Origin: an uncultured delta proteobacterium
GTDB lineage: Bacteria > Desulfobacterota > Syntrophobacteria > BM002
Direction: 5' to 3'
Assembly: GCA_963712115.1 (NCBI GenBank)
Contig: CAVQGX010000030.1
Span: forward strand, 1 to 64,000
DNA length: 64,000 bases
Under the pieces are notes generated by a model. It ran no database searches. It was not told the DNA's origin and was given only the letters and a program-made list of their open reading frames with translations. The translations under genes and the position numbers were made by a program. Each line of letters starts with the position of its first letter. Within the stretch, counting starts at the first letter, position 1. Of the stretch, positions 7,459 to 56,097 are shown in pieces.

Positions 7459-7664
7459 GATGTAGGATGTGAGATTTCGGATTTCGGATTTCGGATTGCG
7501 GATTGATGAAAGGCACAAGGCACAAGGCAGCAGAAGACTAAATTTTTTCCTTGCGCCCTGAGCCTTGAGCCGTGCGCCTCTCTGGCTACTGGCTACTATC
7601 TACAAGCAAGTATATAACAACTGACAACGGATCCGCCTTCGGCGGAACAACGGACAATAGTAAT

Positions 7665-20704: not shown

Positions 20705-20794
20705 GGCAGCAGGTAGAACTCAGAGGTCAGAGATCAGATGTCGGAGGTCAGGGTTAAAGCTGATCTCTGATCTCCGACTTCTGACCTCTGTGAT
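20705..20794. repeat. CAGAGGT-type heptamer hairpin element
   Basis: Near-identical to 42998-43086; AGAGGTCAGAGATCAG... pairs with ...CTGATCTCTGATCTCCGACTTCTGACCTCTG. Confidence 0.85.
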
Positions 20795-20911
20795 GGACGC
20801 CTTCAACGAATCAACTAATTCTCTAATCAACTAATTGACGAACTCCTTTGAGCTGTGAGCTGATTCAACGATTTTAACGGGTTGAACGAGTTCAACGATT
20901 GAAGTTGTGCG

Positions 20912-24426: not shown

Positions 24427-24578
24427 GGCATGGAGCATGGGGAGACAGCTAGCAGAAGTCAGAGATCAGAGATCGGAGGTCAGAGGTCAGAGATCAGAGG
24501 GCAGACGACGGAGGACAGAGGACAGATTTCAGCAGGGAACAGGCAGCGGGCAGCAAGCAGAGGTCAGAGGTCAGGAGT

Positions 24579-25174
24579 CACATATGAAAAGTGAAGTAAA
24601 GAAAAACTTATCCATTACCGTGAAATCGAGTTTTTGACTTCACAGGACGACCGTGAGCCTTGTTGGCCATGTGGGAGCAGACCATCACTTAACTTATGAA
24701 GTGTGCATACACAGTCGGGTGATCGGATCAACATGACAGTGCGGGCCGTGTTCTTTCCAGTCAGATATATGAGTCTGTTTTTCCTGAGAGGAAAATGACT
24801 AGGGTCACATTGGGTATAAAGGCCGGGGGCCTATCCAGAGGTCGAGCCTGTCGCCCCGAAGCATCGGGGGTGGCTAGACGTCTATTGATCGAGACTCACC
24901 CGGCAACCCGGATCCGCCGGACTGGTCTGCGCACTTCAGTCCAGTTAATGGTGCTGTCTCCTTTAGACAACGTTCATCTGTGGCGAATCCAGGAACAGTT
25001 CAGGCCTGGAGACGGTGATACGCTAAGAGGCGATACGAGAGTTTAAATGAGCAAGTGGGAGCGAAGGGAATTCTTGAGCTCATAGCGACGACCTCACAGC
25101 TCGAGGTGTGAAATGGTTTTCGGTAGAAGTCAGCTTTATAGCGACCAGCAGGTCAGTCCGTTTTTCATTAACCA
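24579..25174 (-). mobile_element. Second IS1111-type copy lacking almost all of the transposase
   Basis: 24579-25007 is the reverse complement of about 41981-42409 with two substitutions seen; degenerate left end TGGTTAATGAAAAACGGAC. Confidence 0.85.
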
Positions 25175-40113: not shown

Positions 40114-40184
40114 TCCCCCCTACCACCCCAAATCCACCGTCTAATTTAGTTATCAGGACTGAAATCAGCGGCTTATGGAGTATT

Positions 40185-40311
40185 CCTGATCACCAGCAAG
40201 GTATTAGATGCAAGGCGCCGAGGAGCGACGACTGAGGCGTATGGGGCAATACGCCGCAAGGAGGAGCGATCAAAGGCAACGCCGCAGATGATGCCTTGAT
40301 GGTGGATCAGG
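40185..40311. mobile_element. MITE-like palindromic element family C
   Basis: CCTGATCACCAGCAAGG / CCTTGATGGTGGATCAGG termini; core GAGGCGTAT-GGGGCA-ATACGCCGCA. Confidence 0.65.
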
Positions 40312-40477
40312 GGCACAGAAGAAGGTTGCATTCCACCGAGTATTGGAGTACAAGGTAAGTCCAGATCAAGTCCATTTCTGCACTACCCCAAAACATTCCT
40401 TCCCATCCGTCAGGTCTACGCTCAACTGTTATGGACCGGCTTCCGGCCTAGGTCGAAGATTAAATGGAGGATGGTTG

Positions 40478-40777
40478 GTGAAGTTATTCAAACGGTGGCA
40501 ACAGAGAAAAGAGATTCGCGAACTACAGCTTCGCATTGACCACTGCCGCACCACTATCGAGGAGGTGCACAGTGCACTTCTGAAAGAGGAAATCCAACCG
40601 GAGATTGCTGAACAGTTCAGGCGGTTGGAGGAGGCATTGGAACAGGTGGACGTAAACCAGTTGGGGAATCGTGATATCGAAAAGATTGAAATGGCAACAA
40701 ACAAGTTGCTTGATGAGTTTCGCAGCCTCTATCGCCAGGGCAAGCTCAGGAACATTTACGAAGGACCGGTGCACTAA
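40478..40777 (+). CDS. Hypothetical helical protein
   Basis: GGAGG followed by GTG start; 99 aa, coiled-coil-like. Confidence 0.6.
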   Translation: MKLFKRWQQRKEIRELQLRIDHCRTTIEEVHSALLKEEIQPEIAEQFRRLEEALEQVDVNQLGNRDIEKIEMATNKLLDEFRSLYRQGKLRNIYEGPVH

Positions 40778-40972
40778 AAGATTAGTGACAGACTTAATCC
40801 TTCAGGAGAAATAGCCTCTCACAGAGGTCAGAAGTCGGAGATCAGAGATCAGCCTCACGCTTGCCCACTGACCTTTGACTTCTGACCTCTGGTTAAATGA
40901 AAAACGGACGACCGTGGTGTATAAAGCGAATTATCCGAACCAACCAAAACACACCACAAAGGAGGTCGTCCA

Positions 40973-42025
40973 ATGAAAAAGGTAGCATATCTGGCTATAG
41001 ATGTACATGCCGGTCACTGTGTTCTCGGCCACATGGATTTTGATGGAACTTTTATTGGAAACAGAAGATTTCCCACATCCGAGCGACACATTATCCAGGC
41101 CCTCAAAGCTGTTAAAGCAAAGGAGAAGTATCTGGCACTGGAAGAAAGTAACCTTGCCTATTGGGCTGCCCAGGTGGCCAGACCCTATGTAACCGAAGTC
41201 ATCTCCTCTGATCCCAGGGAGAACGCCTTGATCTACCGCAGTGCCAACAAGAGAGATAAGGTTGATACCCACAAGTTGTGCCGTCTTCTTAGACTGGGGG
41301 AGTTGAACCGGGTTTATCATGCTGAAAATGATGACCGCGCCATATTTAAGTCGGCGGTTCAACACTATATAGATCTTCGCGATCAGCAGGTGGTGTTGAA
41401 GAACAAGATTAAAGCTATGTACCGTCACTGGGGTGTTATTGAGGTAACAGGCCAAGCCGTCTATGGCACCAGCCGTGATGATTATCTGCAAAGGGTGAAG
41501 CATCTTCATATTCGCAATCAACTTCATCGTCTCTATTGTCTAATGGATGAAACCGAGTCCATGCAAAAAAGAGCTCTTAAGGCAATGAAGCAACTCGGGC
41601 GTAAATATCCTGAGATCAAAGAATTCGAAAAGATGCCTGGCATAGGGGAGATTCTTTCCCATATTTTCGATGCCTTCATTCAAACTCCCCACCGCTTTGC
41701 TCATAAGCGTAAACTCTGGCGCTATTGCCGCTTAGGGATCACCGATCGCTCCAGCGACGGTAAACCGCTGGGATTTAAACGGCTGGACAGATCCGGTGTC
41801 TCAGAACTCAAAGCCTTGAGCTATCGAGCATGGCTTGGTGCCATGGGAGGCGATAACGAGGTTAGAAAGTTTTACTCACGCTCCTTGCGGCAGACTCTAA
41901 GCCATGTCCATGCCAGACTCAATACCCAGCGAAAGATCATTGCCGTCATGTACGGCATGTGGAAAAGAGGAGATGCCTATAGGCCTGAACTGTTCCTGGA
42001 TTCGCCACAGATGAACGTTGTCTAA
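40973..42025 (+). CDS. IS110/IS1111 DEDD recombinase
   Basis: AIDVH, LEES, KRDKVD, MPGIG, GITDRSSDGK (catalytic Ser region). Confidence 0.93.
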   Translation: MKKVAYLAIDVHAGHCVLGHMDFDGTFIGNRRFPTSERHIIQALKAVKAKEKYLALEESNLAYWAAQVARPYVTEVISSDPRENALIYRSANKRDKVDTHKLCRLLRLGELNRVYHAENDDRAIFKSAVQHYIDLRDQQVVLKNKIKAMYRHWGVIEVTGQAVYGTSRDDYLQRVKHLHIRNQLHRLYCLMDETESMQKRALKAMKQLGRKYPEIKEFEKMPGIGEILSHIFDAFIQTPHRFAHKRKLWRYCRLGITDRSSDGKPLGFKRLDRSGVSELKALSYRAWLGAMGGDNEVRKFYSRSLRQTLSHVHARLNTQRKIIAVMYGMWKRGDAYRPELFLDSPQMNVV

Positions 42026-42029
42026 AGGA

Positions 42030-42340
42030 GACAGCACCATTAACTGGACTGAAGTGCGCAGACCAGTCCGGCGGATCCGGGTTGCCGGGTGAGTCTCGAT
42101 CAATAGAAGTCTAGCCACCCCCGATGCTTCGGGGCGACAGGCTCGACCTCTGGATAGGCCCCCGGCCTTTATACCCAATGTGACCCTAGTCATTTTCCTC
42201 TCAGGAAAAACAGACTCATATATGTGACTGGAAAGAACACGGCCCGCACTGTCATGTTGATCCGATCACCCGACTGTGTATGCACACTTCATAAGTTAAG
42301 TGATGGTCTGCTCCCACATGGCCAACAAGGCTCACGGTCG
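42030..42340 (+). ncRNA. Predicted seek/bridge RNA region of the IS1111 element (ends approximate)
   Basis: Hairpin-rich; AGAAGTC (42105-42111) and GACCTCTG (42145-42152) match the two target strands; ATATGTG (42220-42226) matches the element's right end. Confidence 0.7.
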
Positions 42341-42455
42341 TCCTGTGAAGTCAAAAACTCGATTTCACGGTAATGGATAAGTTTTTCTTTACTTCACTTT
42401 TCATATGTGACTTCTGTCTTCGGCCTGCTGGATAAATGTTCTTTCCCTGATTTCC

Positions 42456-42484
42456 TTGACAGTCAATCAGCAAAGGTTTATAAA
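42456..42484 (+). promoter_or_regulatory. Sigma70 promoter of tRNA-Ala
   Basis: TTGACA-N17-TATAAA. Confidence 0.7.
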
Positions 42485-42498
42485 AAGGCCGGCAAAAA

Positions 42499-42574
42499 GG
42501 GGACGTAGCTCAGTTGGGAGAGCGCAGCGTTCGCAACGCTGAGGTCGTGGGTTCGAATCCCATCGTCTCCACCA
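42499..42574 (+). tRNA. tRNA-Ala(CGC)
   Basis: G3:U70 pair; CAGCG TTCGCAA CGCTG; encoded CCA. Confidence 0.96.
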
Positions 42575-42583
42575 ATGAGTGGT

Positions 42584-42611
42584 AACCGCGGCCTTGACCG
42601 CGGTTTTCTTT
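42584..42611 (+). terminator. Intrinsic terminator after tRNA-Ala
   Basis: AACCGCGG/CCGCGGTT followed by TTCTTT. Confidence 0.7.
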
Positions 42612-42984: not shown

Positions 42985-42997
42985 GCAGAGAAAAGCA

Positions 42998-43086
42998 GGC
43001 AGCAGGTAGAACTTAGAGGTCAGAGATCAGATGTCGGAGGTCAGGGTTAAGCTGATCTCTGATCTCCGACTTCTGACCTCTGTGAT
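42998..43086. repeat. CAGAGGT-type heptamer hairpin element
   Basis: Near-identical to 20705-20794. Confidence 0.85.
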
Positions 43087-43132
43087 CGAATACTTGGCCA
43101 ATTACTTGACTCTCTACGTATGGTGATCAGGA

Positions 43133-55787: not shown

Positions 55788-56097
55788 TCGATGAATCTTT
55801 CATACAAAGCATGGAGCATAGGGCATAGAGCATAGGGCATAGAGCATAGAGTAAGGAGCCAGAAGTCGGAGGTCAGAGATCGGAGGACAGACGACAGACG
55901 ACGGATGCATTCAAGTTCAAGGTTCAAAGTTCCAAGTCCAGAGCTAAGAATGAACGGTTTCCACTGCTCACGGCTTACCGCTTACTTTAGGTTTTAACGG
56001 TTTAAACGATTTGAACGGCTTGAAAGAGTTGACTTTACGCTGTGCGTTTGGCGTTCTGCGCTCTGCGGCAGACTCTTTTTGCACTTTGTGGTAAAAA

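Follow-up and report, generated by a model that had tools for sequence, protein, structure and literature searches.

We analyzed a 64,000-nt stretch of DNA from an uncultured delta proteobacterium (positions 1 to 64,000 of contig CAVQGX010000030.1, hereafter the window) and conclude, with a probability of about 0.88, that positions 40892–42409 hold an active or recently active insertion sequence of the IS110 family, with IS1111-type organization, that is guided by RNA into arrays of heptamer tandem repeats. The evidence supports a new, distant example of the known RNA-guided IS110/IS1111 mechanism, aimed at heptamer tandem repeats, in line with an earlier reading of the same letters (the original prediction).

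In the mechanism that we propose, the 3′ non-coding region of the element would encode a structured RNA, roughly 240 nt long, built of two parallel modules. Within module 1, AGAAGUC would pair with the top strand of the right target half (core G plus ACTTCT), and GACCUCUG with the bottom strand of the left target half (GACCTC plus core TG). Within module 2, the partner of AUAUGUG in an excised circle would be the bottom strand of the right end of the element plus core, and that of a 5′ segment, for which AUGUGACC is the candidate, would be the left end. At the shared TG, the DEDD/Ser transposase would then exchange strands, leaving the element inserted into TGACCTC/TGACTTC heptamer arrays. We infer that the RNA is transcribed and processed, that the transposase binds it, and that the element passes through a circle carrying a promoter at its junction; the fourth guide, on the left-end side, is likewise putative.

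Ends, copies and insertion sites

The ends of the element were read from its junctions and from empty sites in related genomes. The copy at 40892–42409 (copy 1) reads GACCTC-TG-GTTAAATG at its left junction and CATATG (42402–42407)-TG (42408–42409)-ACTTCTG at its right junction. The orthologous intergenic region upstream of tRNA-Ala(CGC) is free of the element in three congeners (G012, G014 and G009), where it reads GACCTC-TG-ACTT with a single TG, and the element therefore measures 1518 bp, including one copy of a 2-bp TG core. Set against these empty sites, the junctions show the IS110 pattern, with no terminal inverted repeats and with insertion at a shared short core without any other duplication. 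The element carries a 7-bp subterminal pair, ATGAAAA/TTTTCAT, set in from the left end by 5 nt and from the right end by 3 nt, and an 11-bp perfect inverted repeat whose arms start 14 nt and 64 nt inward. Non-coding DNA accounts for 81 nt on the 5′ side of the transposase gene and for 382 nt on its 3′ side.

The genome surveyed (G000; 4.9 Mb in 70 contigs, the window being positions 1–64000 of its contig C30) contains three full copies at 99–100% identity, namely copy 1, a copy at ~130.7 kb of C30 and a copy at ~2.2 kb of contig C47, whose open reading frames run over 365–366 aa with no stops. It also contains a fragment without ends at C30:230902–231910 and, in the window, a non-autonomous derivative at 24579–25174 that keeps both ends but not the full length. 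Its parts are a diverged left end, a unique stretch of ~100 nt, the final ~45 nt of the transposase gene and the entire 3′ non-coding region. Alignment of the insertion sites, a check suggested along with the original prediction, shows that all four copies with ends share the left flank and core TGACCTC-TG and sit at TGACCTC-TG-AC[T/C][T/C]CTG; no unrelated targets were seen among them. The right flanks read ACTTCT for copy 1, ACCTCT for copies 2 and 3, and ACTCCT for the derivative, so that the right target differs at 0–2 of 6 positions. The two window copies had been placed in the same register at TG-ACTYCTG, and the junctions of copy 1 and the derivative bear this out. Two unoccupied repeats reading CTGACCTC-CG-ACATCTG had also been described; these exist, on the minus strand, at 20735–20751 and 43028–43044, ~30 nt away from where they had been put.

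The repeat that receives the element is abundant in this genome, as had been claimed. Tandem Repeats Finder (TRF) reported 3872 non-overlapping arrays, 2058 of them with period 7, which fall into 271 unit classes; the ACCTCTG class (equivalent to TGACCTC) is the second commonest of the 271, with 118 arrays. The genome has 64 occurrences of the site GACCTCTGAC[CT][CT]CT, and only ~4 of the roughly 60 candidates carry the element. The exact sequence at which copy 1 sits is found 26 times here and 9, 5 and 11 times in three congeners, versus 0 for a reversed-pattern control. Among the targets of relatives of the element, lag 7 was best in 16/30 unique reconstructed sites (at least 0.5 in 7/30), and the CTCTG surroundings of several more distant relatives are period-8 or non-periodic. 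A literature search found no IS110/IS1111 element that targets heptamer tandem repeats, which is not proof that none exists.

The proposed 3′ non-coding RNA and its guides

Relatives of the element were collected from three congeneric genome loci and 56 metagenome contigs, of which 47 were used; the nine contigs dropped comprise five cut inside the gene, three at 32–34% identity and one 31-residue piece. At least 200 nt of the 3′ region was available for 49 sequences, including copy 1. Across them, the 3′ region shows strong conservation of a scaffold, broken by a small number of variable blocks, which are exactly the guide segments named in the original prediction. The scaffold is conserved in ~40 relatives with 63–99% transposase identity. 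We derived its structure from 37 non-redundant sequences (six duplicates and six of unsuitable length were left out) as an RNAalifold consensus to which the inner hairpin was added and from which guide–guide pairs were taken out. In this structure 97.4% of cells are paired, versus 35–45% (maximum 45.1%) when the 3′ partner is slid, and compensatory change is found in 14 pairs, versus 6.5 in shuffles, a value reached by 0/500 shuffles.

The scaffold is closed by an outer helix (42064–42077 with 42259–42276, extendable to 42050–42063 with 42278–42291) that encloses two arms. In the first arm, the hairpin at 42113–42143, which is where the predicted stem AGCC..CCCCGA-TGCT-TCGGGG..GGCT is located, is preceded by AGAAGUC and followed by GACCUCUG, which lie on the 5′ and 3′ strands of an internal loop. 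The plan of this arm (CAAU, 7-nt guide, UAG, hairpin, CUC, guide ending in UG) is repeated nearly letter for letter in the second arm as CAAU-GUGACCC-UAG-hairpin(42188–42216)-CUC-AUAUAUGUG. The region has what is expected of the non-coding RNA of this family, a target-binding loop whose sides match both target halves. A scan of 40700–42600 against Rfam (E up to 10) returned no bridge RNA family, giving the neighboring tRNA and chance matches only. That neighbor is a tRNA-Ala(CGC) gene at 42499–42574, 90 nt downstream of the element, which corresponds to Rfam's best match there (tmRNA, below gathering score). Three relatives (L037, L038 and L050) carry a ~165-nt insertion in the apical loop of the donor-module hairpin (window ~42201), and this loop therefore appears tolerant of large insertions.

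The three guide segments proposed earlier, AGAAGTC at 42105, GACCTCTG at 42145 and ATATGTG at 42220, are all present there, and they are not expected by chance. Among 20,000 dinucleotide-preserving shuffles of the 376-nt non-coding region, 211 held the 8-mer, 491 held the 7-mer, six held both, and two held both in order within 80 nt; none held all three segments.

Three of the four guides covary with the DNA. The two target guides, which had been predicted to face each other, occupy both strands of the conserved internal loop and track each relative's own flanks. The left-target guide matches its own flank at 4.39 of 6 variable positions, versus 3.17 after permutation (31 unique pairs of 43; 0/5000 permutations reach the observed value). 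The right-target guide matches at 5.36 of 7 positions, versus 3.50 permuted, when two registers are allowed (33 unique of 40; 0/5000), and register A alone gives 4.00 versus 2.79 (0/5000). In register A, found in copy 1 and its close relatives, the terminal C of the guide, which precedes UA, pairs with the core G. In register B (L039–L053, L068 and others), six guide bases stand directly before UA, and UA could pair with the core TG. L008 and L013 combine the guide AGACGAC with the flank G-TCGTCT, two guide changes answering two target changes. The distant relatives L039–L042, L047 and L055 have period-8 or short CTCTGCG-type contexts, with the right-target register shifted by one base.

The left-donor guide, which had been noticed as a match to the right end plus core, equals that sequence in 31/41 copies and follows it over three end types, CATATG, CATGTG and CATACG. 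The remainder comprise 5/41 with a G opposite a bottom-strand T, 3/41 in which the core differs as aligned, and 2/41 with the C42224 form of this genome. A mutual-information scan of DNA positions against RNA columns was dominated by clade structure, and we used it only for the signals at 42223 and 42227, which were then permutation-tested. Base 42227, directly after the guide, equals the first right-target base in 27/37 unique cases (permuted mean 12.8; 0/10,000 permutations reach 27), and base 42228 gives no clear signal (10/37; reached by 530/10,000 permutations). The base after the left-target guide, G42153, is identical to the first base of the element, which does not vary.

Because left ends vary little (GTTAAATG, GTAATATG and few others), covariation cannot locate the right-donor guide. 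By its place in the module, AUGUGACC(C) at 42178–42186 is a candidate; against core G plus GTTAAAT it forms seven of eight possible pairs, one of them G-T. We also considered TTTATACC (42169–42176), which a 1-nt insertion turns into a perfect 7-mer in L068/L069. Its ACCC is paired in a consensus helix, and 42178–42186 is therefore the preferred of the two candidates.

The five copies in this genome differ at only two positions of the 3′ non-coding region, both of them inside guide segments. Position 42108, in the right-target guide, is A in copies 1–2 and C in copies 3–5, and position 42224, in the left-donor guide, is G in copies 1–2 and C in copies 3–5. The congeneric relatives L007 and L008 have C42108 and G42224, so that one change in each form is derived. 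With A42108 the guide is perfect for GACTTCT, and perfect 14-mer sites number 26 for the A form versus one for the C form.

Table 1 Features of the element and of its derivative in the window.
Feature	Position	Strand	Basis
Insertion sequence, 1518 bp including one core copy (GTTAAATG...CATATG-TG)	40892–42409	+	Three full copies; empty sites in G012/G014/G009
Left target (LT) GACCTC, final unit of a heptamer array	40884–40889	+	Same in 4/4 copies with ends
Left copy of core dinucleotide TG	40890–40891	+	Occupied junctions versus congener empty sites with one TG
TTAAAT, putative part of a TGnTTAAAT extended −10 if the ends were joined in a circle	40893–40898	+	By eye
Left subterminal repeat ATGAAAA	40897–40903	+	Pairs with TTTTCAT; related 10-nt pair in inverted-repeat search
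GGACGACCGTG, left arm of 11-nt perfect inverted repeat	40906–40916	+	Partner 42333–42343; kept in relatives
Transposase gene, 350 aa, DEDD_Tnp_IS110 + Transposase_20 domains	40973–42025	+	Pfam, NCBIfam, homologue alignment
Conserved structured non-coding RNA scaffold (bridge/seek RNA)	42050–42291	+	Pairing and compensatory change
Right-target guide AGAAGTC, complementary to top strand of core G + ACTTCT	42105–42111	+	Covariation with flanks
Inner hairpin of target-binding loop	42113–42143	+	Helices 8–9: compensatory change in 5/10 pairs
Left-target guide GACCTCTG + G42153	42145–42153	+	Same sense as LT + core, so pairs with bottom strand
Candidate right-donor guide ATGTGACC + C	42178–42186	+	Position parallel to right-target guide (CAAT-N7-TAG-hairpin-CTC-guide)
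Inner hairpin of donor-binding module	42188–42216	+	Helices 11–12: compensatory change in 5/8 pairs
Left-donor guide ATATGTG + position 42227	42220–42227	+	Same sense as right end + core
CACGGTCGTCC, right arm of 11-nt perfect inverted repeat	42333–42343	+	Inverted-repeat search
−35-like TTTACT; spacer to TGgTTAAAT would be 17 nt in a circle, pointing into the gene	42388–42393	+	By eye
Right subterminal repeat TTTTCAT	42398–42404	+	Junction sequence
Right target (RT) ACTTCTG	42410–42416	+	Junction reading and empty sites
Non-autonomous derivative, ~594 bp, internally deleted	24579–25174	−	Flanks CTGACCTC-TG / TG-ACTCCTG

Classification and rival explanations

The transposase, judged from its sequence, is a distant member of the IS110 family. 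Its open reading frame of 1053 bp encodes a PF01548-type N-terminal domain (38.3 bits, cut-off 29) and a Transposase_20 C-terminal domain (PF02371; 33.4 bits, cut-off 21.3), and the latter aligns with the IS621 transposase of solved structure (E 7e-5). The catalytic D, E, D, D and C-terminal serine are in place, as D10, E58, D95, D98 and S261 (in DRSSDGK) are kept across 19 aligned homologues, down to ~32% identity. A D/E/D/D plus Ser pattern is described for IS621 (PMC11208158), and these residues probably correspond to IS621 D11/E60/D102/D105/S241, going by the pattern and the C-terminal alignment only. A tblastn search of plasmids found a single relative, at 21.7% identity, and a DNA search of plasmids with the element gave no match. 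Beyond the three copies, the genome has 11 further PF01548 matches (14 in all) that belong to other, better-scoring clades, among them C18:72565, C48:13359, C41:2806, C3:96773, C13:20156, C9:21762 and C29:9451. Heptamer arrays were absent from the flanks of the three pairs of other IS110-family genes examined in G000, indicating that heptamer targeting is specific to the studied clade.

The IS1111 label of the original prediction is supported at the level of organization only (3′ non-coding region, guide order, 350 aa, short subterminal repeat). A longer downstream non-coding region is given as a mark of IS1111 elements (PMC11187229; PMC11208160), and the 382 nt downstream versus 81 nt upstream agree with this. 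Similarly, IS1111 seekRNAs are described with the top-strand match 5′ of the bottom-strand match (PMC11187229), and 42105–42111 precedes 42145–42152. Subterminal inverted repeats of IS1111 elements are described there as 7–17 bp. The serine motif LGITDRSSDGK has S-D-G and no proline, versus the IS1111 consensus GL-P----S(t)G.

Compared with the IS1111 seekRNA elements ISEc11, ISPa11, ISKpn4 and ISPst6 (Siddiquee et al. 2024, PMC11187229), our element shares a DEDD transposase of ~330–350 aa, a long non-coding region 3′ of the gene, a specific target of its own, and a 5′ segment complementary to the top strand followed by one complementary to the bottom strand, the two overlapping at the insertion point. 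Unlike those elements, it has a very distant transposase without the literal GL-P----S(t)G motif, two right-target registers within one clade and a subterminal repeat of only 7 bp, and its target is a heptamer tandem array, whereas that work describes repetitive extragenic palindromic (REP) elements, attC sites and transposon ends as targets. The RNA also follows the two-loop plan of bridge RNAs (PMC11208160). Like the bridge RNA of IS621 (Durrant et al. 2024, PMC11208160), it is built from two internal-loop modules in parallel, in each of which guides flank a hairpin on both sides; a 2-nt core is common to both modules and insertion is into a genomic repeat (PMC11208160, PMC11208158). An extra guide-adjacent base that follows the non-cognate DNA resembles the IS621 handshake guides (Hiraizumi et al. 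2024, PMC11208158; PMC13626964). However, the IS621 RNA is in the left end, with reversed guide order and core CT, whereas here the RNA is 3′ and the core is TG, and the handshake-like base stands 3′ of guides that pair with bottom strands, whereas the IS621 handshake pairs with top strands. The Pseudomonas putida elements ISPpu9 and ISPpu10 belong to the IS110 family and insert into abundant intergenic palindromic repeats (PMC12288879; bioRxiv 10.64898/2026.03.19.712850), and ISPpu9 has extra small-RNA gene copies without a transposase (PMC12288879), resembling the derivative at 24579–25174; their host repeat is REP, a class other than the heptamer arrays here.

These comparisons leave a real possibility, at somewhat below even odds, that the element is not IS1111 proper but represents a deep branch of its own within the IS110 family, with an IS1111-like layout that is convergent or ancestral. 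The modest Pfam scores (38 and 33 bits), the NCBIfam score below cut-off, the lone 21.7% plasmid match, the serine motif G-I-T-D-R-S-S-D-G in place of GL-P----S(t)G (PMC11187229) and the 11-nt inverted repeat 64 nt inside the right end all point that way, whereas the 3′ non-coding region, the guide order, the length of 350 aa and the 7-bp subterminal repeat are all IS1111-like. We consider it very improbable that the target is instead set by the protein or by a hairpin of inverted arrays, with the RNA-like matches as by-products such as repeat fragments inside the element. Such a role for protein or hairpin would suit CTCTG, the 3′ part of the left target plus core, which is near-invariant across the family and where the RNA and protein readings are therefore indistinguishable; copies 1 and 5 do lie at the 3′ arm of inverted arrays, and a target hairpin requirement is reported for ISPpu10 (bioRxiv 10.64898/2026.03.19.712850). 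However, the guides change with the flanks at the variable positions in relatives, the donor guide changes with the end of the element, the guides lie within a conserved, covarying scaffold and match beyond chance, and no inverted array is found within 70 nt to the left of copies 2 and 3.

Several observations weigh against an active element guided by RNA through a circle. The transposase misses the equivalog cut-off of NCBIfam NF033542 (82 versus 140 bits, full-length alignment 6–333). Matching the right-target guide to its flanks needs two pairing registers, and some matches are poor (3 of 7 in register A for L021, L027 and L065, at best 2 of 7 for L051). Within this genome, 3/4 sites mismatch the resident right-target guide at 1–2 positions, while the copy 1 site matches its own guides perfectly; insertion at sites matching only part of the RNA is described for IS621 (bioRxiv 10.64898/2026.08.31.748434). 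C42224 in copies 3–5 mismatches their own right end. Guides of the three congeneric copies have only 0–1 perfect sites in their own genomes, so host tuning of relatives' guides is unsupported and a guide tuned to its host describes the A42108 form of this genome only. The consensus fold pairs the candidate fourth guide, 42178–42186, with 42251–42258 in a helix without compensatory change. A promoter scan of the element gave 0 sigma-70-like sites. RNA-library contigs cover the non-coding region (X18 41985–42305 with two differences, X15 42068–42310 and X16 42064–42374, the last two derived from relatives) and show no strand or end information; since RNA libraries can hold DNA, they are a weak hint of expression. 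The assembled sequencing-run contigs contained no circle junction and no precise empty-site joint; a 40776>42449 joint in X16 is not the excision product. Junction promoters are cited for the IS110 family, and by eye the joined ends of the element would bring together −10- and −35-like motifs (Table 1).

Some of these points would also fit a guide system that is real but whose copies in this genome are immobile relics, at least the C/C form of copies 3–5 being impaired. We regard this as unlikely. C42224 mismatches the right end, C42108 leaves one perfect genome site, one copy is internally deleted and another is an end-less fragment, and ~4 of roughly 60 candidate sites are occupied; on the other side stand the three full copies at 99–100% identity with 365–366 aa frames free of stops, the absence of the insertion from the congeners' orthologous site, and the perfect match of copy 1's site to its own guides. 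An active or recently active RNA-guided element remains our preferred reading.

More tentatively, and as a joint suggestion that we hold to be doubtful as a whole, the clade may be specialized on short CTG-containing tandem repeats of Desulfobacterota and naturally retargeted by single-base guide changes. Because the element targets a direct repeat, its two target guides come close to being complementary to each other and could close the target loop on itself, which would favor guides that keep a mismatch. In the same suggestion, the bases at 42153 and 42227, each 3′ of a bottom-strand guide, may serve as a handshake reading the recombination product, and transposase-less derivatives that keep the RNA gene may be mobilized in trans.

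The known bridge/seek RNA systems gain a distant and compact member with a TG core, whose scaffold is well resolved by ~40 natural variants, and guides reprogrammed in nature can be seen among species as well as among the copies of a single genome. The heptamer tandem repeats, abundant in this genome (2058 arrays), serve as landing pads for an RNA-guided element. The table of guides and targets could seed orthogonal recombinase tools; the known mechanism is unchanged.

Repeats in the window and genome

The period-7 arrays are mostly short and intergenic, with examples in the window at 2659–2934, 7465–7597, 24453–24574 and 55808–55902. Inverted pairs of them are frequent and could fold as hairpins. 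A ~100-nt palindromic form made of inverted heptamer arrays (for example at 20705–20800 and 42994–43096) has 32 copies in the genome; with many congener copies at 85–95% identity, it behaves like a REP-like or miniature inverted-repeat transposable element (MITE)-like dispersed repeat. Another dispersed repeat, of ~185 nt, lies at 40127–40315 between two genes just upstream of the element and has 14 copies in the genome at ~88–98% identity, with copies in congeners too.

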